From assembly GCA_040219255.1 (NCBI GenBank), contig JAVJSW010000037.1, forward strand, positions 64,001 to 128,000: a stretch of DNA of 64,000 nt. The letters run 5' to 3'. The position numbers and the translations under genes are program-made. This document shows, one piece after another, positions 1,060 to 19,457 of the stretch. The notes under the pieces are model-generated. The model made no database searches. It saw only the letters and a list, made by a program, of their open reading frames with translations, and had not been told where the DNA came from. Numbering within the stretch: position 1 is the first letter of the stretch; each line of letters begins with the position of its first letter. This DNA is from Sumerlaeia bacterium (GTDB taxonomy: Bacteria; Sumerlaeota; Sumerlaeia; SLMS01; JAHLLQ01).

Positions 1060-1911
1060 TTATTCGACCGCTTCGATGACAGGAGGGGTGTCATTGTTGC
1101 CTTCGATCACGCTGATTTCTTCGCGATCCTGGTCGTCGTCCTCGTCGTCATCGCGGATACGCTCACGGTAGCCTTCGTCGTAGATCAGGTAGCCACCGGC
1201 GCCGAGTGCGGCGGCGCCGACAACGGCGCCCGCGGCGATCAGACCTGTGTTCGCACCGCCACCGGCCCACCAGGCACCGGCGATCTTGCGGTCGTCGGGG
1301 GTGAGTTGACCGGTCGACTGCTCGTTACCGGGAAGGCGGCCTTGGCCGGCGTCTTTCGGGACGACCTTATAGCCTTCGGCCATGTTGGCGTCCTTGACGA
1401 CGATCATCCCGGCGCCGGGGGTCACGACGGCGAGTTGGTTGCCGGTCGTGGTGTTCTTGATAGCCATGGCGCCTTGCAGCACTTCCACCATCAGGTTGCC
1501 CAGGGGGTCGCTGGTGATGCCGGCGATCTGCGCTTTGTCGTTTTCCAAGGCGGTGACGACGAGGTCGTTGAAGGCGATTTTGCCCTTCAGGCCCTCTTCG
1601 GAAGCCACGGCGACGCTGCCTTCCTTGATCGCCACGGTGGACGCATCGGGGAAGGTGACGTTGGAATTCATGCCGACGAGAACGGCGTCGCCGTTGGCAA
1701 GGGAGACGGAGACGAGGGATTCGGCGGACTTGATAAAGTCGCCGGTTTCCACTTCATTGAGGGTGGAGACGCGGGCGGGAAGGGTCTTCTCTCCGCGCAG
1801 GATATTGTACGAACCCTCGGAGCGAGCCAAACCGGCCCGCTCGCCCGCGAAGGCGGGGGCAAGCAGCAGTGTTGCCAGGGAAACGCTGAGGAAAGCTTTG
1901 GCGTTACTCAT
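1060..1911 (-). CDS. Secreted FecR-like beta-domain protein with C-terminal TM helix and acidic tail
   Basis: ATG at 1911 with AAGGA upstream; signal peptide; GDFIKS...VSLANGDAVLVGMNS resembles FecR; hydrophobic GLIAAGAVVGAAALGAGGYLIY then a D/E-rich tail. Confidence 0.6.
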   Translation of the reverse strand: MSNAKAFLSVSLATLLLAPAFAGERAGLARSEGSYNILRGEKTLPARVSTLNEVETGDFIKSAESLVSVSLANGDAVLVGMNSNVTFPDASTVAIKEGSVAVASEEGLKGKIAFNDLVVTALENDKAQIAGITSDPLGNLMVEVLQGAMAIKNTTTGNQLAVVTPGAGMIVVKDANMAEGYKVVPKDAGQGRLPGNEQSTGQLTPDDRKIAGAWWAGGGANTGLIAAGAVVGAAALGAGGYLIYDEGYRERIRDDDEDDDQDREEISVIEGNNDTPPVIEAVE

Positions 1912-2077
1912 GTTAGGTATTCCTTCTTGTTGAAAGGGTGAGGCCGATTTGGCATCGTCCAATCCCGGAGTAGTCAATTTAGTCCATATGCTGGCGCAAC
2001 AGTGGGGAGTTAGGGGGGTCTGACGCAAGGTTTAATTCTGTCATGATTCCTGCGCAAACGCCTAGAGCGGTCTGAAT

Positions 2078-4805: not shown

Positions 4806-4822
4806 GGAAAGTTCAGACCTCT

Positions 4823-5920
4823 TCAGAGTGTCGCGACCGGTCCGGCGCCGAGGACGGCGTCTTCCAGAACACGGGCCGATCGGTGGGGCGTACCCCCCGG
4901 GGTAAACCGCCAGAAGGAGCATTCCCGCAAACTCGCTGCCAGGTCTATGAAAACCCGACCCAAGGGGAGGGAAGGGGCGCTTTGGCTGGGGCGGCGGATC
5001 ACGCTGGCGAGGCTGGTCAAGCCTTGCGAGGGCTTAAGCGTTTCCAGGGACGGGTTCGCTGGTCTCTCTGGCATGAGGTCGGTGCTCGAGTCGCCGGCGT
5101 GCTGAAAGAGGATCATGGCGCCCTCCTGCCGCGCCAGGCGGTCGATTTCGCCCAGAAGAGCCAGTGAGGGTTTGGCCGGCAGTTCCAGGTAGCCGAAGCC
5201 GAAGCGTTCGCCGGCGCGGCGGATTTCGACGCCGGGGAAGAGGCTGGGCTGGAATGGTCCGGCAAAGGGGGTGCTGAACCAGATGGTGAAAGGCTGCTCC
5301 TCGCCAGCGGCGTTTATGGGGGTCTGGCCAGCGCCCATCCGGTGGGAGAGCAGGACGATGCTTGCTCCCTGGAGGGACGCGGGCTCGGGCCAGACGCATT
5401 CCCAGCTTTGCCAGCCGGCTTTCGCGTCGGCCTGGGAGGGGTCGCGGTCGGGGCGTTTGAGGGAGCCGCTGCGGGGGAAGGGGTGGATGAGGCCCTCGCG
5501 CAGCGGGATGGCCAGTGTGTCTTCCGCGAGCAGAACCCAGCCAGCGCCGGAGTCGATGAGGCACCGGGTCAGGGTGGTCTTGCCGGCACCGCTGTCGCCG
5601 GTCAGGAGAAGGACGCGGCCGGTGGGTTCGTGGATGAGAGCGTTGCCATGGAGCAGGCACAAGCCGGGGCGGAGTTCGGCGAGGACCTGATGAAGGAGGA
5701 TAAGGGAGGCGGCGACGCGGAAGGAGGATTTTCCGACGGTGAGGTGGAAGCGTTTACCTATGGCTGGATAGGAAATTTCGCACCGATTTCCACGCCAGTC
5801 GAGGAGGGCTTCGGGTTGGGGGAAGGGGTTGGGTGTGGGGAAGAGGTGGTAGACGCCTGCTAAAACAGAAAGAACGTCCTTGTCGCCGGTGAGGACGACA
5901 GGGACGCCAGCTGCAAGCAA
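4823..5920 (-). CDS. HPr kinase-like P-loop kinase (RiPP-associated type)
   Basis: LLHGNAL...LLLTGDSGAGKTTLT (His plus Walker A) and LLAEDTLAI acidic pair; TTG start uncertain. Confidence 0.78.
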   Translation of the reverse strand: MLAAGVPVVLTGDKDVLSVLAGVYHLFPTPNPFPQPEALLDWRGNRCEISYPAIGKRFHLTVGKSSFRVAASLILLHQVLAELRPGLCLLHGNALIHEPTGRVLLLTGDSGAGKTTLTRCLIDSGAGWVLLAEDTLAIPLREGLIHPFPRSGSLKRPDRDPSQADAKAGWQSWECVWPEPASLQGASIVLLSHRMGAGQTPINAAGEEQPFTIWFSTPFAGPFQPSLFPGVEIRRAGERFGFGYLELPAKPSLALLGEIDRLARQEGAMILFQHAGDSSTDLMPERPANPSLETLKPSQGLTSLASVIRRPSQSAPSLPLGRVFIDLAASLRECSFWRFTPGGTPHRSARVLEDAVLGAGPVATL

Positions 5921-5955: not shown

Positions 5956-6153
5956 TTAGTAGAAGACCTCCGCTTCGGCGTCGCGGCCGAGGGTGCCGTC
6001 GCCCTCGTCGGGGGTGCCGGGACCGCGGCGCAGGGGGAAGCCACCGGTGCAGGCGTTTACTTCCATCGAGACATCTTCCATGCCTTCCATGGAGTGGGTC
6101 AAGATTTTGGGAGCTTCGTATTGCTCATTCGTATGGTTGGTCTTGTTTTCCAT
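5956..6153 (-). CDS. Putative RiPP precursor peptide (65 aa)
   Basis: GGAG RBS upstream; YEAPKI matches the YxxPxL/I RRE-binding leader motif; lies between the RRE gene and the kinase gene. Confidence 0.8.
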   Translation of the reverse strand: MENKTNHTNEQYEAPKILTHSMEGMEDVSMEVNACTGGFPLRRGPGTPDEGDGTLGRDAEAEVFY

Positions 6154-6511
6154 TGTTGTCTCCGTAGTTAGCGTATGGTGAGGCGTCGGGAATCAGCTTC
6201 TCGTTTTGCAGGTCTCGTAATGTGTCGCGCACATCCTGGGTGATTTTCTCGCGGCTCACGTCCGGGTAGGACTCCATCAGTGAGGTCACGATCCCATTTA
6301 TGTCAACGCCTGAAGTGTGACACTGCCAGATAACGAATGCAACCCGGTTAAGCATATGGACGGTCCGGGTGCGCGCGTCATAGACGGCCACGGTGTTTCC
6401 TAAGCGTTGATAGTGCCAACGGCTCTGTTTTCCTGGCAACTCTCCTTGATGGGTGGGGTCTTGTTGAGTGGGGCCTTGATGGGTGGGGTTGAATTCCTGA
6501 GCGCTGGCCAT
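6125..6511 (-). CDS. Stand-alone PqqD-family RiPP recognition element (RRE)
   Basis: VAVYDARTRTVHMLNRVAFVIWQC...IVTSLMESYPDVSREKITQDVRDTLRDLQNEKLI is a typical PqqD pattern. Confidence 0.88.
   Translation of the reverse strand: MASAQEFNPTHQGPTQQDPTHQGELPGKQSRWHYQRLGNTVAVYDARTRTVHMLNRVAFVIWQCHTSGVDINGIVTSLMESYPDVSREKITQDVRDTLRDLQNEKLIPDASPYANYGDNNGKQDQPYE
6445..6489. repeat. Three tandem 15-nt units in the 5' part of the RRE gene
   Basis: cttgatgggtggggt / cttgttgagtggggc / cttgatgggtggggt, encoding PTHQG-PTQQD-PTHQG. Confidence 0.8.
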
Positions 6512-6577
6512 TGAAGCGAGGTCCCGGAAATCCAGGTCGATTTCTTTTCCCAGCTAACTGGGAAAAGCTGTGGAACA

Positions 6578-9412
6578 CTACTCCCAACTATCCCAGTCCG
6601 GTAAGGCCGCCGGACGGGGACCGTCAAGAGTTAAGTTCGCTGCTGGATCTCCGAAGATCGTGTACTCCTTGAGCGTTTCGTCGAAGAACGGCCATTGGGC
6701 GTGGAAGTCGATGCGCGCCTGCAAGAGCAGTTCGCCGATGGTTCGGGGCCGCACGGCGTCGCTCTGGCTCAGGAGGGACATGACGGCGATGGCGAACTGC
6801 TTCTGCTCGAAGTAGTAGTCGGCGCTGACGGGACAGATGTTTCCGATGGCGCCGTGGTCCGCCACGATGGTCCAGGCTTCCGCCATTGATCGTTTCGTGG
6901 CGTTCGGATAGGCGAAATTGCCGTTCAGACAGGTGAAAGTGGCGACGATGGGCCAGTTGTCTTCCGTGGCGATGAGTCCAGTCATGATGTCATCGGTGGT
7001 CACGATGCGCTCGCCGGTCCAGATGTCGTCGCTGCCGTGGCCCATGTAGAGTGCAAAGGCCGTGCCATCGGCGAAGGCGTTTTGGATCGCGGCGCGCGTC
7101 ACGGGGTCGTTGTTGGGGGTCGAGGCGAGGAGGCCGACGTGGGCGCTGCCGTGGCCGGTGGGGGCCCAGTAGCTGTCCCACAGGGGCACGTCCTCCCAGT
7201 AGATGCTGAAGCCGTCGTTGTCGAAGTCGTCGTTGTCATCGGTGACCCAGAGAGCGGGGCGGTTGGCGTCGCGAAGGGTTTCGACAAGGGCGTCGAAACG
7301 GATCTGGCGGTCGACGAAGTTGGCGACTTCTTGCGGGGTCTTGGCGGGGATTCGGCCAAAGGAGGCGTCGGGCAGAAGGTCGCCGCCTTCGAAGAGGGTG
7401 TAGGGGTAGTCGAGAGGCACTTCGAGGAAGCCGAAGCTGTATTCGGGGCTGAGTTCGTTGAAGACCGGAATCTGAGGCGCGTCGAGAGGATCGAGTTCGC
7501 CGCGGGGGTCCGAGTTGCCGTGGGCGACGAGGAGGAAATCGGGGAGGGCGGCGTGGGAGGGAGAATGATCGAGAAGTGCGACGAGGGCTTCGCGCAGGGC
7601 CTCGGGGCTTTTCTGTCCGCCGTTGTAGGCGTCGTAGGCGGCCTGCGGGTCGAGTTCGATGGTGCCGGCGCCATAGTGGGCCACAAGGGGCGAGAGCGCC
7701 GCGGCGAATTCGTCGGGCCGGACGTAGATGCGCTCGAGCCTGAATTCGGCGATGGGCGGGACCGGCATGGCCTTGGCCACCGTGATGACGGGCGGTGTGG
7801 TGATCGCGTCGAGGCGCGTGACGAAGAACGTGGTGTGGGAGCTGGGGGCGTCGAATTCGACCGCGGCGGCGGCGCCCGCGTCATAGGTGAAGACGGGCGG
7901 GTTGGCGACGACTTGGGGAAGCTGCGGGTTGGTGATGTCGACCACCAGAACTGCGCCGGATGTCGTGGCGGGATCGAAGCCGCCGACGGTGACTCGGCGC
8001 GGGCCGGAATCGGCGGGCAGATCGACGAGGCACTGGTTATCGGGATCGAGGCGGAAGTAGCCGGTGTAGGTCAAATCGTACCAATTCAGGTTCTGGGCCG
8101 ACGTGCCCGACGGCCTCGGCGTTACGATATGGCGGACCTCGATGGTGTCGCCGGAAGGCAGCGAGGGCAGGAAAATCGAGTCCGTGAGGACATGAACGGT
8201 CTTGCCTTCCCATTCGTCGGTTTTTGTGTCCACGCCCTGGATGCGGAGTTTGGCGCCGTGATCGAAAGCGGAGTCATTGATGTTATAGCCGTGGAGTTCG
8301 GCGGAAATCGTGAGCGCGGTCGTGGTCAGTTCGTCGTGGATCGGAATGTTGTAGGGGCGGTTGCCGCCGGTGTTGCGCCAGAAGAAGAAGCGGTCGAGCG
8401 GGGCGGTCTGGGCGGCCCACTCGAAATAGAGGTCGTACTCGTGGCGGCGGGTGATGGTGTGTTCGGCTTCCGTGGCGAGGGGCGCCAGGGACTCGAAGGC
8501 CGGGCGGATGGTGGCCTGGGTGGTGGGCGAGTCGCCGACGCTGGCGAAGAGCGCGTCCGTGTCGGCGTCATCGGTGTATCGAAAAGGGGCGGTGACGAGC
8601 AGATCGTTCCCATCGGTCCCCAGCGGCGGCACGATGACTGCGTGGTGATCGAGAAGGACCTGCGTGGCGGAGGACGGGTCCGCACCGAGCAGGCTGAGGG
8701 GCACGCGATAGATGGCCGGTTCGTTCCGGTAGGCGATGCGATAGTCGCCCGGGGGCGAGGGAATGGGCGCTGCCTTGGTGGCGCGGGGGCGCGCCGGAAG
8801 CGCGGTGACGGTCTCGCCATTGAGGAAGGTACGCCGCACGACTCGGTGCAGGACCTCTTCCTCGGCCAAGTCGATCGTTGCCAGTCCTTTGGTGGTGGAA
8901 GCGGGGCCGCTGACGGTGATGAGCAGCTCTGTACCGGGGGCGGTTTCGCTCGCCCAGGCGGTGGGATCGACGGTGACTTGAAGGCCTTCGGCGGGGCCAA
9001 CGGCGACGGGGGCGAGCGTGACGCCGGTCTGGGCGTCGAGTGGCTGACCGGAGACAGTGGCGACGGCGACTTTCCAGTCGGCCGGATCGAACTGACCGAG
9101 GCCGGGGACGGCCAAGTACGTCGACTGGGTAAGGAAAGCGGAGTTGGACAGAGCGCGGGGAGCGAGGGCTTCCGCGCCGAAATCCGCCACGAGGGGCGAA
9201 GCGGGGCTCAGGCTCAGTTCACGCCCGAGAGCCTCGGGCGGCAACGTGCCGCCATTGCGGGGGCTAAAACGGAGCGTGGCATGGAAACCGGACGGGGACG
9301 CCTTATTCGGCGCCACCGCGGATTCCAGGGTGAATCCGGCAAGGACGGATGTGGACGCGAAGACAGTGAGCGCGAGGAGGGTAAGAATAAAGGCGGTGGT
9401 GAGGCGATTCAT
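6578..9412 (-). CDS. Secreted C25-family (gingipain/PorU-like) cysteine peptidase
   Basis: Signal peptide; FGRIPA, YMGHGS (catalytic His), ATFTCLNGNF (catalytic Cys) and YTIFGDPA motifs; ends PAALPDWDSWE. Confidence 0.88.
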   Translation of the reverse strand: MNRLTTAFILTLLALTVFASTSVLAGFTLESAVAPNKASPSGFHATLRFSPRNGGTLPPEALGRELSLSPASPLVADFGAEALAPRALSNSAFLTQSTYLAVPGLGQFDPADWKVAVATVSGQPLDAQTGVTLAPVAVGPAEGLQVTVDPTAWASETAPGTELLITVSGPASTTKGLATIDLAEEEVLHRVVRRTFLNGETVTALPARPRATKAAPIPSPPGDYRIAYRNEPAIYRVPLSLLGADPSSATQVLLDHHAVIVPPLGTDGNDLLVTAPFRYTDDADTDALFASVGDSPTTQATIRPAFESLAPLATEAEHTITRRHEYDLYFEWAAQTAPLDRFFFWRNTGGNRPYNIPIHDELTTTALTISAELHGYNINDSAFDHGAKLRIQGVDTKTDEWEGKTVHVLTDSIFLPSLPSGDTIEVRHIVTPRPSGTSAQNLNWYDLTYTGYFRLDPDNQCLVDLPADSGPRRVTVGGFDPATTSGAVLVVDITNPQLPQVVANPPVFTYDAGAAAAVEFDAPSSHTTFFVTRLDAITTPPVITVAKAMPVPPIAEFRLERIYVRPDEFAAALSPLVAHYGAGTIELDPQAAYDAYNGGQKSPEALREALVALLDHSPSHAALPDFLLVAHGNSDPRGELDPLDAPQIPVFNELSPEYSFGFLEVPLDYPYTLFEGGDLLPDASFGRIPAKTPQEVANFVDRQIRFDALVETLRDANRPALWVTDDNDDFDNDGFSIYWEDVPLWDSYWAPTGHGSAHVGLLASTPNNDPVTRAAIQNAFADGTAFALYMGHGSDDIWTGERIVTTDDIMTGLIATEDNWPIVATFTCLNGNFAYPNATKRSMAEAWTIVADHGAIGNICPVSADYYFEQKQFAIAVMSLLSQSDAVRPRTIGELLLQARIDFHAQWPFFDETLKEYTIFGDPAANLTLDGPRPAALPDWDSWE

Positions 9413-9604
9413 ATATGGCAGGTCTCTGGTGATGGGCAGGGGTCTGTATTAAGGCCTATGGGCATCAGCCGCGAGTTTCTTGCGGGATGAGGGCAATTCC
9501 TCGCGAGCAAAATCGGGGGCAGTTTGTGGAATCTTAGTAAAGCGGCGGAAAATTGCCCACTAAAAGAACGAGCGGAATTGTCCGTGAAGGCGGCGTGGGG
9601 CGCC

Positions 9605-10345
9605 TTACATCAGGCGGAAGCGGCACCGCAGCAGCGTGGTCACGGCTTCGATAAAATCGCGCCAGCCGATTTTTTTGCCCTCTTCGAAGGTGCGGGCGAA
9701 AAAGGTCACCGGCACCTCGTGGATGCGATAGCCGCTGAGCAGGAGTTTGGCGGTGACTTCGGGGCAGAACTCGAAGCGTTCGCACTTGAGCGGGATGCCT
9801 TTGATGACCTCCGCGCGGAAGGCCTTATAGGCGGTGGCTTCGTCGGTGATGACCTGACCGAAGAGAATGGCGACGAAGAAGGCGAGAAGTTTGTTGGCGA
9901 CGTAATTGGGCAGGCGCATGCCGGTTGGGGTGCGGCCGAGGAAGCGGGAGCCGTAGGTGACTTCCGTGCGGCCATCGACAATGGGGGCGATGATCTCCGG
10001 GATTTCCGCCGGGTCGTATTCCAGGTCGGCGTCCTGGACGAGAATGATGTCGCCGGTGGCGATTTTGAGGCCGGTGCGGATCGCCCGGCCTTTGCCGTGG
10101 TTGCGTTTGTGGAGCGCGATTTTGGAGTCCGGGCGGCCGTGCTCGTTGTCGCGGAGCCATTCGCGAGTGCCGTCCTTGGAGAAATCGTCGACCAGGATCA
10201 GCTCGCGTTCCAGCCCCAGCGGGGCCAAATCCACGGCGCGCACCTTCTCGAGGACCCGGGGCAGCAGCTCGATCTCGTTGTAGATCGGAATGATCAGGGA
10301 CAACTTGCGGGGCTTGAAATCGGGGGAAGGCACGGGGCGCGGCAT
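9605..10345 (-). CDS. Glycosyltransferase family 2 (DPM1-like)
   Basis: LSLIIPIYNE, VDDFSKDGT, NHGKGRA, QDADLEYDP, GSRF motifs. Confidence 0.9.
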   Translation of the reverse strand: MPRPVPSPDFKPRKLSLIIPIYNEIELLPRVLEKVRAVDLAPLGLERELILVDDFSKDGTREWLRDNEHGRPDSKIALHKRNHGKGRAIRTGLKIATGDIILVQDADLEYDPAEIPEIIAPIVDGRTEVTYGSRFLGRTPTGMRLPNYVANKLLAFFVAILFGQVITDEATAYKAFRAEVIKGIPLKCERFEFCPEVTAKLLLSGYRIHEVPVTFFARTFEEGKKIGWRDFIEAVTTLLRCRFRLM

Positions 10346-10549
10346 GGTCAGGCTCTCAGGCTCGGCGTGGCGAGCAGTGTGGCTCAGTTATAGACCGGCG
10401 CAAGGGGGGAAAAGCTTGGGGTTTGGGACACGGAGGGCACGGAGGATGGAGATTCACGGAGGTGGATCAGTTCCTCTTGGGGGGGCTCCGTTCCGATTCC
10501 TATCCGCGCCAATCCGTGACCCATCCTCGGCGGGCAGCCACCATTCCGA

Positions 10550-12151
<1,602 letters not shown>

Positions 12152-12348
12152 GGGAAAACTCCTGCGTTCGTGCAGCGGGGGGGAGAGAGTATAATCTCGT
12201 CGGCTGGGGTTGCAGCGCCAGGAGCGGGCCAAGAGGCGGGTCCGGGAGGCGATGCCGATTCGGGGGGCCGGATTCGTTTTCTGGTCAGAGAGTTCGAAAA
12301 CGGGAGTTTACCGCCCCGCTCCGCGCCGGACAGGCGGGCGGAGCGAGG

Positions 12349-12429
12349 CTAGCGAAGTCGCAGGGCGAGGGGGAGGTTTCGAAGCCGCGATGGAGTGGCG
12401 TGTGCCGCTGTGGTCGTCGAGTGGATCAT
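12349..12429 (-). CDS. Putative Leu-rich leader peptide (uORF) upstream of leuA
   Basis: MIHSTTTAAHATPSRLRNLPLALRLR*; 5 Leu in the last 11 codons; followed by a GC hairpin. Confidence 0.4.
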   Translation of the reverse strand: MIHSTTTAAHATPSRLRNLPLALRLR

Positions 12430-12474
12430 AACGCGCCGGTCCCGGGGTTGGCGACTCTCCCGATAAAGTCGGAT

Positions 12475-12750
12475 AAAATGAAAAGCGCCCCCGGCAAGCC
12501 ATCGATCTGGCTTTGGCCGGGGGCGCTGGAAGCTTGCGCGGTACCACCCCGAATTCGCTCCCGATGGGGAGCCTTCGTTACCTCTTCTGACGGGAGAGGG
12601 CCAATCCGTCTGGTTCTACTTGCCCGGTGGGGCTTTGGGGCCAGAGGCTCGGAGGTCAGTTCGGGCGGCCGGGGGCGGAACCCTTCCAGCCAAAGGGGTT
12701 CCTCTCTGTCGCTCTCCCGGGCGCCGCCGTACTCGTCCTCGTCGTCGCCG
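12475..12750 (-). promoter_or_regulatory. T-box riboswitch (Leu, CUG specifier), transcriptional attenuator of leuA
   Basis: On the minus strand: GA motif and AGUA, AGAGAG bulge, GGCUGGAA loop, specifier GAA-CUG-A (12657-12659), AGUAGAA, CCGUCA, T-box GGUGGUACCGCG (12537-12548), then an 11-bp terminator stem (12485-12526) and U tract. Confidence 0.9.
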
Positions 12751-12904
12751 TTTACGTGGGGCCGGTTGCATCGGACCGTGGCGGTCCAAAACCGTATGTC
12801 GAGCGTAAGGAAGAACCAGCGGGGGGCGCTCTGTCAAGAGCCGATCCAGAGGCCAACGCATTTCTCGCGATAAAATTTGATGGGTGGTCGTTGTGAGAAA
12901 GGAA

Positions 12905-13049
12905 TCACCACAGAGTCACCGAGGACACCGAGGAAGAGTTTCCTCAGAGTCAGTGACACGATCGCACGTTACGTAGAAAGAGACTTGAAAGAAGGCGATA
13001 TCTTCTCATCCTGAATAAAATCTCGGTGCCCTCTGTGGCTCTGTGGTGA
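12905..13049. repeat. Intergenic inverted-repeat element with ~9-nt internal periodicity (MITE/REP-like)
   Basis: tcaccacagagtcaccgaggacaccgag ... ctcggtgccctctgtggctctgtggtga. Confidence 0.7.
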
Positions 13050-13123
13050 ATTACCAGCTCCCCCGCCACGCCCCCGAATTGCCTTGCCGTCGGGGCCATT
13101 TCGCGCCGTCAGATGGGCCTGCT

Positions 13124-14374
13124 ATGCGTTCTGTGTTCGTCGTTGCCCACCACGAAATCCGCCTGTTGGCCCGCGATGTGAAGGCCCTGCTGCTGCTGTT
13201 TGTGCTGCCGATCGCGTTGATCGTGATCGCGATTTTCGCGCTCGGGTCGCTCTATGGCGGCGGGATGACGGAAACGCGGGTGCTCTTGGTGGATGAGGAC
13301 GGCTCGGCCTTGTCGCGGCAGATTGCCGTGGACTTGGGGACTTATCCGCAGCTCCTGATCGAGACCTCCGATCCGTTCCTGAATGATTCCGCCACTACCC
13401 AGCCCATGACCCGCGAGCGGGCCCAGGCCATCCTCGATTCGGGCGACCGCTTCGCCGCCATCGTTATCCCGGGAGGGTTTGGCGAGGCGGTGACGACCGG
13501 GGCCGCGGCGCGGATTCAGATCCTGCGCAATCCCGCCCAGACCGCCGGGCCCGCCATTGCCTTCGGAATTCTCCAGGGCATCGCCACGCGGCTCTCGGCC
13601 GACGTAATTGCCCGAGGCGTCACCAGCGCCCAGCTCCAGCCCGCGGGCGCCGCGCCGGCCCCGCCGGGCCAGGCCGAGCGCATGCTGGCCGATGTGCAGC
13701 GCGCCACCGCCGAGGCCTGGGAGAATCCGCCGGTCGTCGTCGAGCAAACTGATGTCGTCGAAGTCACCAACGGCGAGATCGATCCGCTGAAGCAGAACGT
13801 GCCGGGTTACGCGGTGATGTTTTCGCTGTTCACGGCTCTGCTGTGCGGCGAGAGCCTGCTTCGTGACCGCGACACGGGGGCGTACCGCCGGCTGCTCTGC
13901 GCGCCGCTCAGCAAGGGGGCTCTGCTGCTGGGCAAGCTCCTCGCCGCGTTTTGCGTCGCGGTGATTCAGCTCATCGTCTTTTTCAGCTTCGGTCACTTCG
14001 TGTTCGGGATGGAGCTGGGCAATTCGGCCGCCGCGCTGGTGCTGATGTGCGCGGTGCTGGCGCTGACCACGACGAGCCTGGGGATTTTCCTGGCCGCGGT
14101 GGTCAAGACGCAGAACCAGCTTTTCAGCCTCACCAGCTTTCTCATCCTCGTCATGTCGGCGGTGGGGGGGTGCTGGTGGCCGCTGGAAATCACGCCGCCC
14201 TTCATGCAGAAACTGGCCTACTTCACCACGCTGAACGCCTGGGCGATGTCCGGGTTCAAGGACGTGCTCTGGTACGGCCGCGGGGTTGCGGCGCTGGGAC
14301 CGGAGATCGCGGCCCTGCTGGCGATTTCCGCGGTGGCGTTTGGGGTGGGTTGGTGGCGGTTTCGGTTCGAGTAG
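13124..14374 (+). CDS. ABC-2 type transporter permease
   Basis: N-terminal TM, large extracytoplasmic loop, VPGYAVMF...DRDTGAYRRLLCAP...GKLL, GGCWWPLEITP. Confidence 0.9.
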   Translation: MRSVFVVAHHEIRLLARDVKALLLLFVLPIALIVIAIFALGSLYGGGMTETRVLLVDEDGSALSRQIAVDLGTYPQLLIETSDPFLNDSATTQPMTRERAQAILDSGDRFAAIVIPGGFGEAVTTGAAARIQILRNPAQTAGPAIAFGILQGIATRLSADVIARGVTSAQLQPAGAAPAPPGQAERMLADVQRATAEAWENPPVVVEQTDVVEVTNGEIDPLKQNVPGYAVMFSLFTALLCGESLLRDRDTGAYRRLLCAPLSKGALLLGKLLAAFCVAVIQLIVFFSFGHFVFGMELGNSAAALVLMCAVLALTTTSLGIFLAAVVKTQNQLFSLTSFLILVMSAVGGCWWPLEITPPFMQKLAYFTTLNAWAMSGFKDVLWYGRGVAALGPEIAALLAISAVAFGVGWWRFRFE

Positions 14375-14387
14375 GGGAGGCTTGGTA

Positions 14388-14494
14388 CAGCGTGCCGCTC
14401 GATCCGCGCTGGTTGGGCGCGGCTCAGGGGCAGTCCTTTCGGTTCATGACCGCGCCGCTCCAGATGCGCTTGGCACGAGGAACGCGGCACGCTG
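14388..14494. repeat. Inverted repeat between convergent genes
   Basis: cagcgtgccgc (14388-14398) / gcggcacgctg (14484-14494). Confidence 0.5.
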
Positions 14495-14513
14495 GACGAT
14501 CGACTTCCTATTC

Positions 14514-17500
14514 CTAATACAGCATCCACTCTCCAGCGCGGGCCGGGCCGCCGCCAGAGGTGGCGAAGGCGGGGCCGTAGTTGGCGGTGAAGCCTTGGGT
14601 TTCGACTTCGATGAGGAAGTAACCGCGGGTTTCGCCGTCGGCGATGGGGAGCGGGTCGGTGATTTCGTAGTTGGCGCCCTTGCTGGGCGAGCCCAGGGAC
14701 GGGACGATGGTGGTGTTGACGCGGTCGCCGGCGACCCAGCCGTTGCCAGCGGCGCTGGGGACGGCGCGGTGGATGTAGAAGCCGATGGTGCCGACTTCCG
14801 CGCCGGTTTCCCAGGCGATGCGTACCGGTTCGCCGGGGTTGGTGGCGGAGGCGGTGAAGGAGATGAGATCGACCCAGAGGGGTTCGCCGGCGTTGGCGGC
14901 GCCGAGGCTGGGGCCGTCGGAGTTGATGCCGCTGGTGTTCTCCCAATCGGTGGCGGTGTCGGTGTCGGTGGAGGAGACGTCGCGGGCGAGGCTGTGCTGG
15001 GCGGCTTTGGCGGCGGCGCCAGACTGGGCGCCGGTGATGTCGCCGCCGAAGAAGGTGCCATAGGGCACGGCGCGGGAAATCTGGCCGGAGAAGCTGCCGC
15101 TGCGGTCTTGCCAATCGAGGTAGTCCATGCCCTTGCCGAGGTCGTCGAGGAGGGCGAGGGAGCCGCTGCGATCCTGCTCCCACGGGATGTTGAAGCCAAC
15201 GAAGAGATCGGGCGAGAGGGTTCCCATGGCGGGCGGGCTGGCGCCGCCTTCGTCAGAGAGGACGAGGTAATCGCTGGCGCCGATCAGGGTGCCGCTGGGG
15301 AAGACGTACTCGGCCTGGAGGCCGGCGCTGTCGCGGAAGACGAGGGTCCATCCGCCGAGGTCAACGGCCGAGGGCACCGGGTTGTAGAGTTCGACGAAGT
15401 CGATGGAGCCGGTGAAGATCTCGTTGATGCGAACGGCGGGATGGAACGGCAGGATCGTCATCGCGGTGATGGTCTGGGTGTTGGGGAAGGCGTCGAAGGG
15501 GTTCGCGGGGTCGGGATTCTCCGGCAGCATGTTGGGGCTGGCGTAGCCGGCGTCGCTGGAGGTCACGGCGGCGAAGCGCATGAGCGAGAGGTCCGGCGAG
15601 CCATGCGAGAGGAGCGGGAGCTGGGTGAGGAAGGCGTCCGGGCCCTGGATGGTGGCGCCCTGACCGGCGGGGAAGGAGCCGTAGCTGCTGCCGTAGCTCA
15701 TGACGATGTCTTCGCGGTAGGCGAAGTTGGTGAAGCTGCCGCCGATGCCGCCGGGCAGGTCGCTGCTGCCCAGCGCGTAGCCGAAGCCGACGCCGGGGGC
15801 GGTGATGCCAGCGATCAGGTCGATGGCGATGCCGGCGCCCTGGAGCGAACCGGAGAGCACGAAGGCGGCGTTGCTGATGTCGCCGCGCAGACCGTCGGCG
15901 AAATCGTTGAGCTGGTTTCGAATGTCGACGGCGCCTTGGCTCGAACCGGCGTTGGTATCGACGTAGAGGAAGGAGCCGTTGTCGATGTTGGTTTCCGACC
16001 CGCCGAACATGTCGCCGCGGACGGCTATGTAAAGGACGTTGTCGCGCAGCAGGCCGCGCATTTCGGTGAGCGAGCCATCGCCGCCGAAGTCGGCGCCGCT
16101 GGCCCCGGGGACGCCCACGAACCCACCGTCAACCGGTGAGCTGGCTAGGAGCACGCCGTCGGAGATGACGGTGTCGAAGGCGCCATCGGCAAAGATGGGC
16201 GGGCGCTGGGGCAGCGGGTCGTAGCCCGTCAAGCCGATGGCGCTGGTGGCTTCGCTGAGGATGCCGGTGAGGTTGGGGCCGGTGGCGGCCTGAACTCGGA
16301 TCTTGGCGTTGGGGGCGTTGGTGTTGACGATGATGGCGCCGCTTTCGATGGCGTCGAATTGCAGGTAGCTGGACACGGGCCGGGTCACGGTGAAGGGTCC
16401 GGACGCAGGGGCGTCGATGTCCGCGACGGTGAGCTGGTCGCCGCCGAGGTCGAGGATAATGCGGGCCGACTGGGCGAGGTTATCCTGGAAGAGGCCTTCG
16501 ATGGTGAGGGAATTGGGTTGGTTGAGGGTCACCGTGGGCGGGTCGCTTTGGGTGGCCGGGGGCGTGGGCGACGTCACGACGACGGACGGGCCGGGGGTGT
16601 TGGCGTCGACGTCGACGAAGGCGATGACTTCGTTGGGTGGAGACGCCATGGAGGTGAGTTCGGCCACCGCGCGGATGGTATGGTTGCCGGTGCCATAGCC
16701 GCGCCAGAGGAAGCGGAATTCTTCGAAATCGTCGCCGAGGTTCTGGTCGTTCTGGACCAGGACGCCGAGGGGCGGGAGCAAGCTTGCATTGTAGGGTTGG
16801 GCCGAAATGGGGGAGCTGTCGTCGACCTGGAGCGTCAGCGAATAATCGGCTGGGAAATCGATGGTTCCCATGCCGCTCGAGCGGCGGACGCGGACGACGA
16901 GGTCGTTGGGATAAGCGGGATCGTTGATGAGCGAAGGAAGTGGCTGGAAATCGACCGAGCCGTCGCTGGGATCGGCGTCATAGCCGAGGAAGACTTCGGG
17001 CGAGGGCACGTCGGCGTCGATGCCGTCAAAGCGGGTGATGCTGTAGTTGCCGGTTTCTTCGAAGGCCACCACGGTGAGTTCATAGGTGCCGGTGGTGAGG
17101 CCGCTGAGGACCTGGCGCCACTGGGTGCGGTCGTGCTGGCGGGATTTGTTGTCGCCATTGAGCAGGGCGAAGATATCGCCGTCGGTGGCCGCCGGGGGCA
17201 CATTGGTCAGGATGTGGACGGAATTGGCGGTTTCGTGGGTATCGACCACGACCTCATAGGACGAGGTCAGGATGTCGCCACTGCCGGTTTGAGTAGGGAA
17301 GGCGAGCGTGGCGGTGGGAGGCAGGCGGTCGAGGTAAATGACTTTGCGTTGCAAGTCGTAGAGGCTGGGGGTGTTGGCCGGGCGTTGGCGGAAGGCGATG
17401 GTTTCCAGGTAATGGTAGCCTTCCGAGAGGCCCGTCGCATCGATGGAGATGGTATAGCTGCGGGGACCGCCGATGGCGCCCGAGACGTTGGGGAAGCCGT

Positions 17501-19457
17501 CGAAGCCATTGAACTCGCCCCCGGCGGTGACGCCCGGGGTGCCGTCGATATCCAGGCCATAGTTCAGCTTCACCAGGGCGCCGTCGTTGACCGCGTCGTG
17601 AACGTTGACGGTGTCGAGTTGGACTTCGATGGTGTTGCTGGAAACGATGTCGAGGGTGGTGAGGCGGCGTGTGCCTTCGGGGCGGCCGTCGTCGGGGTCG
17701 GGGCCGAGGGTGCCGCTGGCGTTGGTGATGGTGAGTGTGGAATCGGGAACCGCCGGGCCATAGACCACGAAGCCGCGGCCGTGGAAGTTGCCGTCGGTGC
17801 TGTTGCGGGGCACGCGCAGGCCGATGCGTCCATCGACCGCCACCGTATAGGTCTGCGGAATGTCATTGAAGACGTTGAGGACTGGATCGGCGGCGAAGCC
17901 GGTCAGTTCCACCAGCACGGTGCCGGGGGCGAAGCCGGTGTCGATGCCGCGCTCGTCGTAACCCGAATCGCCCCGGTCGTTGATGCCGACGATGCAGGAG
18001 TCAAGGCGCTCGTAGATATAGAGATCGCTATCGATGAAGCGCGTGTACTGGCTATTCTTCGCGTACACATCGTTGATTCCGACGAGATTGGTGATGACGC
18101 CGGAGCCGAAGTTGCCGAGGGCGTCGCCGCGTCCGTCCTTGGGGAAATCGCGTCCGCCGCCGAATTCTTTGGCGTTGTAATAAACGACTGGGAAGCCGGC
18201 TCGGGTCAGGATGAAAGCGTGGGGCAGGTTGCCGTAGCCGTTGAATTGGCCGGGGCCGAATTCGTCGTGGCTGCCGGCGAACATCACGCCCCGGGTGCCA
18301 TCGTTGGGGTTGCCGTCCACAGCGTCGTAGGTGTCGTGCTCGAGGAGGTGCATGTCGCCGAAGCCGCCGGCGTTGAAGACTTCGTCCATAGCGAAGAAGA
18401 GGGGGAAGTCGAGGACGTCGCGGTTTCCGAAGCCGTCTTTGCGGGTGTAGGCGGAGAGAACGGAGAAATCGCCGGTGAAGGCTTCGCCGAAGCTGAAGGG
18501 CGTGAAGGGCGATCCGGTGATTTGATCGCGGCCGAGATTATAGACGGCGCCATCGTAGAAGTCGTTCCAGAACCAGGTTGGGACGTGCTTCACGGCGTCG
18601 AGGCGGAAACCGTCGACGCCGTAGAGTTCGCTCATCCACTGCACATAGCGGAGCAGGAGGCCGACGGAGTTTTCGGCGACCGGGTCGCCGGCCAGGGGAT
18701 CGGCAAGATTGAAGGGATGACGGCCCCATTCCTGGGGAAGACCCTGGTCTGGGTAGAACTGGCGGTTGGATTCGCGGGGGGTTTCGCGGGGGATGTTGTT
18801 GCCGAAGCCGGGGACCGGGTGGCGGATGAACTGGTAATTCTTGCTCTGGTTGATGTCGATCAGGCCCGCCAGGCGGCCCTCCAAATCGCCGCCGGAGAAG
18901 GCGCTGTGAAAATCGCCGTCGGGATCGTCGACCGGATCGCCGGCCGCGGTGCTCAGGTAGGTGACGAAGCCGGGATAGCCACCGTTGATTTCGAAGTTGA
19001 AGGAGGAGCCATCGCGGAAACCGTTGTGGTTCAGCACCGTGTCGATGGTCAGCGACACCCCCGCGCGGTCCGTCTCCTCGGCGAAGTGGCGGAAGCCGGA
19101 CTCGGTGCCGTACAGGGTGCGGTCGTTTGGCGAGCCGAGGTTGAATCGGTCGAAGACGTCATAGCCGACGGAGAACCCGCCCGAGTCGGCTTTGCTTGGC
19201 GGCGGCACCCAGAGGACATCGTAGCCGGCCATGAAGACGTCGGGCATGCGGCGCTCGATGGTCTGCCAGGAGCCCTCGAAGTATTGCAGAATAACATCGC
19301 CGGCGGTTGCCGTGGCGGTGGTGAGGCCAAGGGCGAGGACGGCGAGGGGAAGGGTCAGTGAGGGACGGGTGTCAATTATTTTACCGGGGGACCGGCGGCC
19401 AAATCGGAGGGGTGGCATCGGGGTTCTCCTGAATTTTAGGCGGGATAGGCGAAGCAT
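14514..19457 (-). CDS. Large secreted GH13 alpha-amylase with Ig-like domains, lamin-tail domain and C-terminal putative sorting domain
   Basis: DTVLNH, DGFRLDAVKH, FGEAF and FAGSHD GH13 regions; VRINEI...DFVELYNP...VDLGGWTL lamin-tail domain; ends ARAGEWMLY; start may be 19418. Confidence 0.88.
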   Translation of the reverse strand: MLRLSRLKFRRTPMPPLRFGRRSPGKIIDTRPSLTLPLAVLALGLTTATATAGDVILQYFEGSWQTIERRMPDVFMAGYDVLWVPPPSKADSGGFSVGYDVFDRFNLGSPNDRTLYGTESGFRHFAEETDRAGVSLTIDTVLNHNGFRDGSSFNFEINGGYPGFVTYLSTAAGDPVDDPDGDFHSAFSGGDLEGRLAGLIDINQSKNYQFIRHPVPGFGNNIPRETPRESNRQFYPDQGLPQEWGRHPFNLADPLAGDPVAENSVGLLLRYVQWMSELYGVDGFRLDAVKHVPTWFWNDFYDGAVYNLGRDQITGSPFTPFSFGEAFTGDFSVLSAYTRKDGFGNRDVLDFPLFFAMDEVFNAGGFGDMHLLEHDTYDAVDGNPNDGTRGVMFAGSHDEFGPGQFNGYGNLPHAFILTRAGFPVVYYNAKEFGGGRDFPKDGRGDALGNFGSGVITNLVGINDVYAKNSQYTRFIDSDLYIYERLDSCIVGINDRGDSGYDERGIDTGFAPGTVLVELTGFAADPVLNVFNDIPQTYTVAVDGRIGLRVPRNSTDGNFHGRGFVVYGPAVPDSTLTITNASGTLGPDPDDGRPEGTRRLTTLDIVSSNTIEVQLDTVNVHDAVNDGALVKLNYGLDIDGTPGVTAGGEFNGFDGFPNVSGAIGGPRSYTISIDATGLSEGYHYLETIAFRQRPANTPSLYDLQRKVIYLDRLPPTATLAFPTQTGSGDILTSSYEVVVDTHETANSVHILTNVPPAATDGDIFALLNGDNKSRQHDRTQWRQVLSGLTTGTYELTVVAFEETGNYSITRFDGIDADVPSPEVFLGYDADPSDGSVDFQPLPSLINDPAYPNDLVVRVRRSSGMGTIDFPADYSLTLQVDDSSPISAQPYNASLLPPLGVLVQNDQNLGDDFEEFRFLWRGYGTGNHTIRAVAELTSMASPPNEVIAFVDVDANTPGPSVVVTSPTPPATQSDPPTVTLNQPNSLTIEGLFQDNLAQSARIILDLGGDQLTVADIDAPASGPFTVTRPVSSYLQFDAIESGAIIVNTNAPNAKIRVQAATGPNLTGILSEATSAIGLTGYDPLPQRPPIFADGAFDTVISDGVLLASSPVDGGFVGVPGASGADFGGDGSLTEMRGLLRDNVLYIAVRGDMFGGSETNIDNGSFLYVDTNAGSSQGAVDIRNQLNDFADGLRGDISNAAFVLSGSLQGAGIAIDLIAGITAPGVGFGYALGSSDLPGGIGGSFTNFAYREDIVMSYGSSYGSFPAGQGATIQGPDAFLTQLPLLSHGSPDLSLMRFAAVTSSDAGYASPNMLPENPDPANPFDAFPNTQTITAMTILPFHPAVRINEIFTGSIDFVELYNPVPSAVDLGGWTLVFRDSAGLQAEYVFPSGTLIGASDYLVLSDEGGASPPAMGTLSPDLFVGFNIPWEQDRSGSLALLDDLGKGMDYLDWQDRSGSFSGQISRAVPYGTFFGGDITGAQSGAAAKAAQHSLARDVSSTDTDTATDWENTSGINSDGPSLGAANAGEPLWVDLISFTASATNPGEPVRIAWETGAEVGTIGFYIHRAVPSAAGNGWVAGDRVNTTIVPSLGSPSKGANYEITDPLPIADGETRGYFLIEVETQGFTANYGPAFATSGGGPARAGEWMLY

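Follow-up and report, generated by a model that had tools for sequence, protein, structure and literature searches.

The locus described here raises the question of why the gene of an exported cysteine peptidase of the C25 family is placed directly ahead of genes producing and modifying a small ribosomal peptide. It resides in a stretch of 64,000 nucleotides (the window) originating from an uncultured Sumerlaeota bacterium, whose own genome (G000) is 92% complete. The original prediction held that the peptidase is a PorU-like sortase and that the peptide, bearing sugar or phosphate, is its anchor or acceptor for secreted proteins, possibly including a nearby amylase, rather than an antibiotic. 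Each genetic element it named was recovered in its place, and what follows concerns the relationships between them.

Composition of the peptide cassette and its surroundings

The minus strand carries genes for a glycosyltransferase (GT2), the C25 peptidase, a PqqD-type RRE, a precursor peptide, an HprK-like kinase, a PF14907 nucleotidyltransferase and a radical SAM (rSAM)/SPASM maturase. As judged from its translation and a 14-member alignment, the precursor (5956..6153, minus; 65 aa) combines a leader YEAPKILTHS, the type of which is conserved across the 14 sequences, with a core ..S.EVNACTGGF containing one invariant Cys and an acidic tail ending in Tyr. Precursors of family f2 have short cores (..NACTSF[IVL]P), and the invariant Cys is changed to Ser in two variant cassettes devoid of both rSAM enzyme and kinase. 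The RRE (6125..6511, minus; 128 aa; Pfam PqqD, 41 bits) stands alone, lacking the S24/S26 peptidase half to which the orthologous gene is fused in eight related loci (L006-L010, L012, L019 and L021; S24/S26 Pfam matches in seven of the eight, with scores near or below cut-off). The SpI-like leader peptidase is therewith absent from the G000 cassette; an orphan S24-RRE fusion is encoded elsewhere in the same genome (G000:C42:240587-241264).

The P-loop kinase (4823..5920, minus; 365 aa), a putative analogue of LppK, is recognized by weak family matches, all of them below threshold (TIGR04352 HprK_rel_A, 30 bits against a cut-off of 200, plus P-loop families); its orthologue from the metagenome contig L070 gives 25.8 bits with Hpr_kinase_C, below the cut-off of 33.3, and syntenic orthologues are found in eight loci. 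The nucleotidyltransferase (3504..4922, minus), an analogue of LppN/PsmN, is assigned with 67.7 bits to Pfam NTP_transf_5 (cut-off 31.2), and its true start is probably downstream of 4922, since the open reading frame overlaps the kinase. Together, a kinase and a nucleotidyltransferase of these types make up a known phospho-glycosylation module for peptides, which speaks for the glyco- or phosphopeptide originally envisaged. The maturase (2078..3466, minus; 462 aa) possesses its own N-terminal PqqD domain (Pfam Radical_SAM 88.8, SPASM 31.2 and PqqD 42.8 bits) and reaches no equivalog cut-off of NCBIfam, the best match being MftC (154 versus 265) with StsB also below cut-off; orthologues with 46-52% identity are present in eight loci. 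In composition, the cassette is a variant form of the family of linear polyphosphorylated peptides (LPP), with an rSAM enzyme and a C25 protease added.

Membership of several neighboring genes is less clear-cut. GT2 (9605..10345, minus; Pfam Glycos_transf_2, 104.6 bits) is co-oriented upstream of C25 as predicted, and NCBIfam places it closest to polyprenyl-phosphate glycosyltransferases (AglJ, ArnC and dolichyl-phosphate hexose transferase). Its participation in the system is nevertheless doubtful, because this neighbor is conserved in three genera only (adjacent in G001 with 77% identity, on the opposite strand in G002 with 74%); the remaining 18 of the related loci examined lack it, and 13 further GT2 matches (tblastn, E<1e-5) lie elsewhere in its own genome. 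LeuA (10550-12232) and an ABC-2 permease (13043-14374), both within the span covered by the original prediction, were rejected as parts of the system, since neither has a counterpart among the 20 related loci examined. On the other side, at 1060..2028 (minus), a conserved accessory protein is encoded with a signal peptide, a domain of about 190 aa, a C-terminal membrane helix and an acidic tail. It matches no Pfam or NCBIfam family, and homologues directly follow the rSAM gene in L006, L008 and L021 or lie near C25 in L011, L013 and L017. A weak lead to FecR came from the Atlas. In general gene scans rather than a dedicated search with an MsbA model, no peptide exporter was seen among the window genes scanned, in the 14 kb upstream or in the related loci compared by tblastn. 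Polysaccharide genes recur beside the cassettes, namely Wza and Wzc in L010, Wza and a NusG-like gene in L013, and GT4, Bac_transf and Wzz in L070, with Wzy_C, GT4, PilZ and MshEN at 8-11 kb from the G000 cassette.

The C25 peptidase and its linkage to the precursor

The peptidase (6578..9412, minus; 944 aa) scores 138.2 bits with Pfam Peptidase_C25 (PF01364; cut-off 23) over residues 562-927 and represents a subfamily of about 940 aa, referred to below as C25-940. It is separated from the RRE gene by the predicted 66 nt (6512-6577), and its dyad is intact, His792 and Cys828 being invariant in 17 of 17 subfamily members and aligning with His211 and Cys244 of RgpB. An N-terminus resembling a signal peptide, from which Sec export is predicted, is followed by beta domains and then by the catalytic domain, which is gingipain-like; the protein ends in a sorting tail (..DWDSWE) of a type common to the subfamily. 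An AF2 model (pLDDT 83.9) was compared with known structures by Foldseek and VIA-align. The top Foldseek match was PorU (6za2; E 2.6e-26, 844 columns, TM 0.43/0.38), which is the sole solved structure aligned beyond the catalytic domain (VIA-align Z 20.4, rmsd 7.5, 586 residues, model 209-935); the catalytic domain by itself (559-933) is closest to RgpB (Z 40.2, rmsd 2.6, 329 residues) and Kgp (Z 37.1).

The idea of a PorU-like sortase therefore stood as far as the whole-length fold is concerned, the multidomain arrangement matching loosely, and fell with respect to family. Assignment to PorU proper was rejected on account of scores below cut-off (85.4 bits with the PorU model NF033707, cut-off 420; 65.6 bits with the PorU2 model NF052324, cut-off 450), the missing T9SS CTD and the T9SS core, which was not found. 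Searches of G000 with TIGR04189, NF033710, TIGR03517 and TIGR03513 gave no match, three of these four having been run without a positive control, and SprA/Sov, PorV, GldM/PorM and GldL/PorL were not found in this 92% complete genome. The T9SS CTD (Por_Secre_tail) was matched on neither C25 nor the amylase, and its sole match in the whole genome (29.2 bits) lies on another contig.

Independent assortment of C25 and cassette across genomes had been named as the outcome that would speak against a link; instead, the two turn up together and in synteny within a lineage that yielded no T9SS core. The order C25-(S24)RRE-precursor-kinase-nucleotidyltransferase-rSAM recurs in six genomes of six genera with C25 identities of 32-38% (tblastn), and the neighborhood is for this reason not due to chance. 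Among 19 precursor matches with E<=1e-9, 11 have C25-940 within 10 kb, four of the other eight lying at contig ends and four being not adjacent or not judgeable. C25-940 is encoded by 18 of 25 genomes of the order and by none of 16 class-level outgroups, the nucleotidyltransferase by 10/10 genomes of family f1, 8/11 of f2 and 0/19 of other families, and the precursor by 10/10, 7/11 and, for f3/f4, 0/3; all three are confined to two Sumerlaeota families among the genomes surveyed. These related genomes are not independent samples, the close examples all coming from the two families. On the distant contig L070 (rSAM 35% identical), the genes follow in the order CTD protein-RRE-precursor-rSAM-kinase-C25 with overlapping stops and starts. 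There, C25 and the protein with a C-terminal domain (CTD) share another, lineage-specific tail (..PLYLPMIFR and ..PLYLPLIQR), and C25 has a gingipain-type propeptide domain. Across cassettes the constant pair is C25 and precursor, and the modifying enzymes differ. Exceptions exist as well: a full cassette (G018:C53) has no C25 within 3 kb upstream, and some C25-940 genes stand isolated amid housekeeping genes.

Tail-domain proteins and the possible role of C25

The proposed cargo is a secreted alpha-amylase with an LTD domain (14514..19457, minus; 1647 aa; Pfam and NCBIfam), the 3′ end of which is 5.1 kb from the C25 start, close to the 5 kb originally given. It ends in an Ig/Fn3-like CTD followed by a sorting tail (..GEWMLY). 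This CTD (14517..14936, minus; about 115 aa, a seven-strand sandwich with a W-x-x-[FY] tail) matches no Pfam or NCBIfam family, and its model (pLDDT 82) resembles only generic Ig/Fn3 structures. Within 10 kb of C25-940, 15 of 80 CTD genes are located versus 0.97 expected, i.e., about 15-fold enrichment, with such cases in 8 of 18 genomes. As cargo, the amylase is backed by the enrichment of its CTD family, and set against this is the fact that one alone of the ten CTD genes in G000 is near the cassette; it may be regarded as a candidate client of the C25/peptide system. Precursor-like genes directly follow CTD genes at G000:C30 and C55, G021:C3 and G020:C106. At the junction of passenger and CTD, no conserved motif for cleavage was apparent. 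CTD-like sandwiches are very common (28,582 representative proteins at E<=1e-3, some inside T9SS-type and C25 proteins), and therefore the narrow phyletic range of strong matches may partly reflect a narrow profile. The sorting tail of C25-940, identical in type to that of neighboring proteins, is present in the three genomes of the class that were screened for tails and encode C25 proteins, and apparently represents an undescribed Sumerlaeota signal. A general tail-processing function of C25-940 was rejected, since the W tail occurs also in a family without this subfamily.

Several roles may be considered for C25 in this setting. It could be a purely hydrolytic protease of the second maturation step, similar to NisP, which trims the exported modified peptide (for example, its acidic tail with the terminal Tyr, or leader residues left over) and releases a free RiPP acting as signal, matrix component or antimicrobial, CTD proteins being merely co-regulated at the surface. 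Proteases conserved in RiPP clusters usually process the peptide, and the catalytic domain nearest to the hydrolases RgpB and Kgp, the propeptide domain in the L070 orthologue and the constant C25-precursor pair all agree with such trimming. It is nonetheless a possibility on the unlikely side: most cassettes already have a dedicated RRE-fused S24/S26 leader peptidase, the short f2 cores offer little to trim, the equivalent of the gingipain S1 residue Asp163 is not conserved, and both the CTD-gene enrichment and the peptides encoded right after CTD genes are left unexplained. A separate reading, in which C25 is the primary leader peptidase of the peptide in G000 in place of the lost S24/S26 domain, takes up the RRE without its peptidase half and the fact that C25 is the sole protease gene in this cassette. 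It appears very unlikely in view of the coexistence of C25 with the S24/S26 fusion in G001, G002, G005, G006, G010 and G023, of the orphan fusion retained at C42, and of Sec export of C25, whereas RRE-guided leader cleavage in LPP pathways takes place in the cytoplasm. Given the fused peptidase in the eight related loci, C25 is probably not the leader peptidase, and since most relatives' cassettes bring their own, it is left free for another role.

This role might concern only secreted proteins bearing the CTD or tail (activation, shedding or CTD removal), the peptide being not a substrate but a cognate partner that regulates or inhibits the protease, or else an unrelated matrix peptide from the same biofilm/EPS operon. 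Pairs of protease and inhibitor genes are common, the sorting tail is shared by C25-940 and its neighbors, and C25-940 adjoins CTD genes with no peptide cassette nearby at G018:C9, G022:C151, G008:C62 and C140, and G003:C312. It would be unusual, however, for an inhibitor to depend on as many as four maturation enzymes, and the close packing of C25 with RRE and precursor in an operon, often with overlapping genes, in six genera as well as L070 argues for direct coupling, so that we regard this separation of peptide and protease as distinctly unlikely. Scarcely probable at all, and already disfavoured, is the lack of any functional link, with C25, cassette and amylase being neighbors by descent only; every close example does come from two related families, and several C25-940 copies and most CTD genes are found elsewhere, but gene order persists across six genera despite protein identities of 32-38%, L070 has the pairing re-established in another order, and the observed CTD adjacency far exceeds expectation.

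That C25, peptide and CTD proteins are functionally coupled is well supported, and the region is best explained, tentatively and with a likelihood somewhat short of even, as a ribosomal peptide pathway of LPP type linked with a protease at the surface, C25 acting in a PorU-like manner. By homology, the RRE binds the YxxP leader of the 65-aa precursor, the putative HprK-like kinase and the PF14907 nucleotidyltransferase correspond to the known phospho-/glycosyl-tailoring pair for such peptides, and the PqqD-rSAM-SPASM enzyme is an addition, with the lone invariant Cys of ..VNAC[TS].. as its presumed target and a thioether as the most likely product. The leader would be removed by an SpI-like S24/S26 peptidase, in G000 probably lost from the cassette and encoded elsewhere. 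Sec-exported and equipped with a C-terminal sorting tail, C25 would consequently be active beyond the cytoplasm, at a stage following modification and export of the peptide. In the preferred mechanism, it would form, like PorU, an acyl-enzyme on a secreted client with an Ig-like CTD, this intermediate might then be resolved with the processed peptide's free amino terminus as acceptor, and the conjugate would be held to exopolysaccharide or envelope by the phospho-glycosyl groups of the peptide. Peptide cassette, C25 and tail-domain proteins taken together suggest a possible new way to attach proteins to the cell surface. Its complete form, i.e., T9SS-independent peptide-primed sorting, where a surface C25 transpeptidase of PorU architecture would cleave secreted proteins, the amylase among them, at their Ig-like CTD and join them to the amino terminus of a leader-free, thioether-bridged, phospho-glycosylated peptide serving as covalent adaptor to exopolysaccharide or envelope, is given a low probability.

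In weighing the best explanation we counted in its favor synteny, precursor adjacency, the phyletic match, the repeat in L070, the constant pair, the separate leader peptidase, the whole-length PorU match, CTD enrichment, post-CTD precursor-like genes and polysaccharide neighbors. Counted against the preferred mechanism were the lack of a sequence feature indicative of transpeptidation, the gingipain-nearer catalytic domain, exporter and junction motif not found, the single CTD gene of ten near the cassette, isolated C25-940 genes, G018:C53 lacking upstream C25, the common CTD fold, non-independent genomes and the W tail in a family without C25-940. The absence of immunity genes, invoked earlier for an anchoring role, fits the parent LPP family too and does not discriminate between readings.

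Relation to known systems

LPP clusters (lppA-K-B-S-D-N) were described in 2026 in Bacillota, to which, according to that paper, they are restricted, with a biological role stated as unknown, LppS as leader peptidase and RRE-guided leader cleavage in the cytoplasm (Popov et al., Nat Commun 2026, PMC13381572). The Sumerlaeota cassette has in common with them a discrete PqqD RRE, a PF14907-type NTP transferase, an RRE-guided leader peptidase of SpI/S24-S26 type (here seen in related loci), a leader consensus YxxPxVLxHQ close to YEAPKILTHS of the G000 precursor, a location in or near polysaccharide loci and the lack of a macrolactam cyclase; where LPP clusters encode an HprK-like kinase, it has a P-loop protein with sub-threshold matches to that family. 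It differs by its host, by the extra rSAM/SPASM maturase and conserved Cys, by the secreted C25 peptidase hard-wired to it, by a leader peptidase either fused to the RRE or lost as in the G000 cassette, and by the MsbA-like pump, which LPP clusters have and which was not found among the Sumerlaeota genes scanned; a term search of the text of Popov et al. (PMC13381572) gave neither "C25" nor "radical SAM". The LPP core is now seen in an uncultured phylum beyond the Bacillota of the 2026 description. Two elements are added to it and conserved: an rSAM enzyme and a secreted cysteine peptidase of PorU-like shape, the latter statistically linked to secreted proteins sharing a CTD. A concrete idea for the role of LPP-type peptides thereby emerges: within the polysaccharide matrix, they may serve a surface protease as its partner or acceptor. 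If peptide-primed sorting is true, this orphan peptide family would gain a function.

A further parallel is provided by the lasso peptides paeninodin and pseudomycoidin, for which a review describes phosphorylation of a precursor hydroxyl by an HPr-kinase homologue, addition of hexoses to that phosphate by a nucleotidyltransferase and recognition of a [Y/W]xxP leader by the RRE (PMC8498205). Nucleotidyltransferase and RRE with [Y/W]xxP leader are shared, as is, putatively, the kinase, whereas the Sumerlaeota cassette has neither lasso cyclase nor B2 protease, and the C-terminal Ser phosphorylated in lasso peptides has no assigned counterpart.

Gingipains RgpB and Kgp (PDB 1cvr, 4ief and 4rbm) are the structures on which the catalytic domain superposes best, and they also lead the profile matches (E 2.3e-21), with the dyad aligned exactly and a propeptide-type N-domain in the L070 orthologue; C25-940 departs from them in the S1 position of Asp163, in its N-terminal beta domains and in being devoid of haemagglutinin/adhesin domains and of the T9SS CTD. 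With PorU, it shares the His/Cys dyad, the alignment to 6za2 over model residues 209-935, export together with a C-terminal signal of the same type as on the presumed clients, and linkage to proteins with beta-sandwich C-terminal domains and to anionic polysaccharide. The distinctions are the catalytic domain nearer to gingipains, transpeptidation that for C25 is putative, and the proposed acceptor, a ribosomal peptide rather than A-LPS. This proposal is relevant to the means by which diderm lineages lacking a T9SS could fasten enzymes to their surface, and peptide-primed sorting, if true, would add to PorU and A-LPS a new kind of sortase-acceptor pair.

Conserved coupling of the C25 peptidase with the precursor cassette

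The minus strand of the window carries, in order of transcription, a GT2 gene (9605-10345, -), the 944-residue C25 peptidase (6578-9412, -), a 128-residue PqqD-type RiPP recognition element (RRE; 6125-6511, -) whose start lies 66 nt past the C25 stop, a 65-residue precursor ORF (5956-6153, -) overlapping the RRE stop, an HprK-like P-loop protein (4823-5920, -), a PF14907 nucleotidyltransferase (NTase; 3504-4922, -), a PqqD-rSAM-SPASM protein (2078-3466, -) and a secreted, membrane-anchored protein of no known family (1060-2028, -); the amylase gene (14514-19457, -) ends 5.1 kb upstream of C25. All details observed by the original prediction, namely the C25 gene, the RRE at 66 nt, the co-oriented GT2 and the amylase 5 kb off, are thus borne out by gene coordinates. 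The LeuA and ABC-2 permease genes located between amylase and C25 are considered bystanders, since counterparts are present in 0/20 related loci compared. The GT2 gene has a 77% identical adjacent homologue in one related genome (G001) and a 74% identical one in divergent orientation in another (G002), and was not found in the other related loci compared; its membership in the cassette system is doubtful. Polysaccharide genes flank the cassettes of loci L010 (Wza and Wzc, together with a tail-bearing subtilase), L013 (Wza, with a NusG-like gene and a cohesin protein) and L070 (GT4, Bac_transf and Wzz), and Wzy_C, GT4, PilZ and MshEN lie 8-11 kb past the left edge of the window. Scanning of the C25-RRE gap for promoters and terminators yielded nothing informative. 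A very long plus-strand ORF without family match, which occupies 1-1941 of the window and extends into L170:11635-13998, overlaps two genes of the minus strand, those of the TPR protein (364-1005) and the accessory protein (1060-2028), and is probably a high-GC shadow frame, and the pyruvate:ferredoxin oxidoreductase and methylmalonyl-CoA mutase genes (19695-23285, +; 23471-25672, +) belong to ordinary metabolism and are unrelated.

The metagenome-assembled genome under study (G000; 5.35 Mb, 92% complete) contains four C25 genes, and the subfamily of about 940 residues represented in the window (C25-940) possesses N-terminal domains absent from the paralogues of 1500-1800 residues. A survey of the 40 nearest genomes, in which the order is represented by 25 genomes only (G000 counted) and class-level outgroups by 16, revealed C25-940 (E<1e-50) in 18/25 and 0/16 of them, respectively. 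By family, the NTase is present in 10/10 genomes of f1, 8/11 of f2 and 0/19 of the others, and matches to the precursor profile (alignment A5) in 10/10, 7/11 and, for f3/f4, 0/3. The gene order C25-(S24)RRE-precursor-kinase-NTase-rSAM is common to G000, G001, G002, G006, G016 and G023, representing six genera with C25 identity of 32-38% (tblastn). Among 19 precursor matches (E<=1e-9), 11 have C25-940 within 10 kb, in four the contig breaks off, on the side where C25 is expected, no more than about 2 kb away, and four are placed on contigs without C25-940, including G018:C53, where 3 kb of upstream sequence is devoid of it. Scanning of metagenomes with the rSAM alignment (A4) returned 80 loci, nearly all of them generic rSAM genes, and, its search patterns being generic rSAM motifs, says little on the spread of the cassette; the sole carrier returned, L070 (rSAM 35% identical), has the order CTD protein-RRE-precursor-rSAM-kinase-C25, in which stop and start codons overlap; next come genes for an S24-like peptidase, GT4, a polyprenyl-phosphate sugar transferase and Wzz. 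None of the 16 loci returned by a contig scan with the C25 alignment (A2) was assigned outside Sumerlaeota, a result obtained with one peptide pattern only that cannot prove absence elsewhere. Independent assortment, set beforehand as the outcome speaking against the predicted link, is not what is seen: proximity to most precursor matches, the order shared by six genera and L070 show that the coupling between C25-940 and the precursor cassette is conserved. As a separate observation, L017 (G021:C112:1-12878) is a perfect inverted duplication in which two identical C25-940 genes, flanks included, point towards one another, most likely owing to misassembly.

Fold of the C25 protein and the separate leader peptidase

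The C25 protein starts with a signal peptide, and its invariant His792/Cys828 dyad aligns with His211/Cys244 of RgpB. Foldseek search with the AF2 model (pLDDT 83.9) placed PorU (6za2) first (E 2.6e-26 over 844 columns), followed by RgpB and Kgp (E 5e-17 to 2.5e-15). When superposed rigidly, the catalytic domain comes closest to RgpB (Z 40.2, rmsd 2.6, 329 residues), and PorU is the only entry aligned over residues 209-935 (Z 20.4, rmsd 7.5, 586 residues). The expectation of a PorU-like protein holds for the overall fold, as shown by the predicted model. The PorU NCBIfam model scored 85 bits, its cut-off being 420, and no T9SS core was found: searches of G000 for SprA, PorV, GldM and GldL, three of them run without positive control, were negative. 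The single Por_Secre_tail match is located elsewhere in the genome. The enzyme has a PorU-like frame but is not PorU. Gingipain-like Arg/Lys specificity, implying cleavage after the conserved R/K of YExP[RK], was considered and rejected as unsupported: the column equivalent to Asp163 is variable and some precursors have Gln at this place. The predicted complex of the catalytic domain (540-944, A2) with the precursor (A5) scored 0.03 against a mark of 0.32. In a class-level relative, a 974-residue ORF (G032:C33:3266-5839, -) matches both the amylase-type sandwich described below and the C25 catalytic domain, so that in this lineage the sandwich sits within the C25 protein.

Eight related loci (L006-L010, L012, L019 and L021) encode between C25 and the precursor an S24/S26-PqqD fusion with motifs GxSMxP, VLHR and RGDN, demonstrating a separate S24/S26 leader peptidase in these relatives. 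The RRE half stands alone in G000, G016 and G018, the peptidase half having been lost from the RRE of the window; an orphan fusion, sharing 34% identity with those in the cassettes of relatives, adjoins uvrC at G000:C42:240587-241264 (+). Since the cassette usually has its own leader peptidase, C25 probably has another job, and its acting as the leader peptidase itself is quite improbable.

Candidate cargo and the C-terminal W tail

The last approximately 120 residues of the amylase (CTD) are modelled as a seven-strand Ig/Fn3-like sandwich (pLDDT 82; generic matches only) belonging to no Pfam or NCBIfam family; its likeness to T9SS CTDs was rejected, as the Foldseek hits were generic Ig/Fn3 folds throughout and did not reach E<=1e-3. 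A short linker connects the sandwich to the tail [DE]W-x-[ILM]-[FY], an arrangement in which ten genes of G000 end. CTD genes (E<1e-20) are enriched near C25-940: 15/80, spread over 8/18 genomes, lie no more than 10 kb away, the expected number being 0.97. The count is conservative owing to fragmented assemblies and comes from genomes related to one another. It also understates tail-bearing neighbours, because two proteins of L010 have no CTD of this type (A1). Secreted tail-bearing proteins flanking C25-940 genes are seen in L010 (10466-12649, -; 1157-3262, -), those without the CTD being an S8 subtilase and an FG-GAP repeat protein, and three tail-bearing ORFs occur in L014 (3357-4535, -; 4731-6947, +; 11781-12977, +).

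CTD genes are immediately followed by precursor-like genes in G000 (contigs C30 and C55/C40), G021:C3 and G020:C106, and in L070 the RRE is inserted between the CTD gene and the precursor; this arrangement is the best support for the proposal that the amylase serves as cargo. That proposal is partly supported: the enrichment and the precursors following CTD genes speak for it, but just 1/10 CTD genes of G000 is near the cassette, and the sandwich, matched at E<=1e-3 by 28,582 representative proteins, is very common. Of its 150 best matches, 87 end in the W tail; others are internal repeats, terminate in T9SS-type CTDs or are C25 proteins. The precursor-like peptides of G000 form a second, Cys-less subfamily (..YETP[QR][VI]ETREA.DLD..LDVNAFTGDPFEL; C30:54504-54836, -; C55:371-553, +; C40:3-122, +), of which the C30 and C55 copies each directly follow a CTD-protein gene far from modification enzymes and the C40 peptide is a contig-start duplicate of that of C55.

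The tail extends beyond CTD proteins. Among G000 ORFs of at least 150 residues, the C-terminus has the form W..[FY](x) in 70, where control offsets inside the ORFs give 11-24, and V..W..[FY](x) in 24, where the controls give 0-2, an excess of about 55 large ORFs. Its form, [AST][SA]V-x-x-W-x-[ILM]-[FY](x)-COOH, exemplified in the window by the C-termini of C25 (at 6578) and the amylase (at 14514), is apparently that of an undescribed C-terminal sorting tail. It follows FGDP on all C25-940 proteins and is missing from the large C25 paralogues; in L070 the C25 and the adjoining CTD protein share another tail, ..PLYLP[LM]I[QF]R. In 400 kb of G036 (family f7), having large C25 genes only, the W tail is enriched (5 vs 0-2); an equal length of G033, a genome devoid of C25 matches, shows no enrichment (1 vs 0-2). 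Because G036 has the tail without C25-940, the role of general W-tail enzyme was rejected for this subfamily, whose members are themselves clients of a sorting route shared by the class.

C25 function and relation to known peptide pathways

We tentatively favour, by analogy, a PorU-like ligation in which C25 would join CTD proteins to the processed peptide, since only this reading uses all three linked components; counting against it, no exporter for the peptide turned up in or near the cassettes, a cleavage motif is not apparent, and the catalytic domain is gingipain-like. The latter feature would suit plain hydrolytic trimming, which leaves the CTD proteins out of account and is somewhat unlikely. 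Less probable again is a protease serving the CTD proteins, with the peptide as a regulator or matrix component. Absence of any functional link between C25 and the cassette is hardly credible in view of their conserved coupling. With the ligation reading, as with trimming, C25 would act on the exported peptide.

The precursor consensus (n=14) is [YW]ExP[RKQ][IV]x[ST]HS...E...[ST][LM]x[VI]NAC[TS][SG]F; f2 precursors end at ..NACTSF[IVL]P, and those of f1 have an extra acidic tail with Tyr last. In genus g6 the cassettes have neither rSAM nor kinase and Ser replaces the precursor Cys, which ties the rSAM to this residue, where a thioether may be formed. The peptide is presumably phospho-glycosylated and exported. 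In lasso peptides a kinase and NTase pair phosphorylates a hydroxyl and then adds hexoses to the phosphate (PMC8498205). A literature search gave no report joining C25 to RiPP-type cassettes or to Sumerlaeota, and papers on Sumerlaeota secretion systems, judged by title and opening lines of the abstract, did not appear relevant.

The nearest known counterparts are linear polyphosphorylated peptides (LPPs) of Bacillota. In the report on LPPs (Popov et al. 2026, PMC13381572), clusters housed in capsule loci encode an NTP transferase, an MsbA-like pump, a precursor with leader YxxPxVLxHQxIxFETxxS, an HprK-like kinase polyphosphorylating core Ser3, and a discrete RRE by which the leader is presented to a Ser-His-Asp peptidase of SpI-like type; their biological role is reported there as unknown, and the authors regard them as restricted to Bacillota. 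Neither C25 nor radical SAM is mentioned in the text of that paper (PMC13381572). The leader motif, to which YEAPKILTHS of the window conforms, the RRE and the NTP transferase are common to both systems, as the HprK-like kinase may be, and the Sumerlaeota cassette is an LPP-like pathway, usually with its own leader peptidase.
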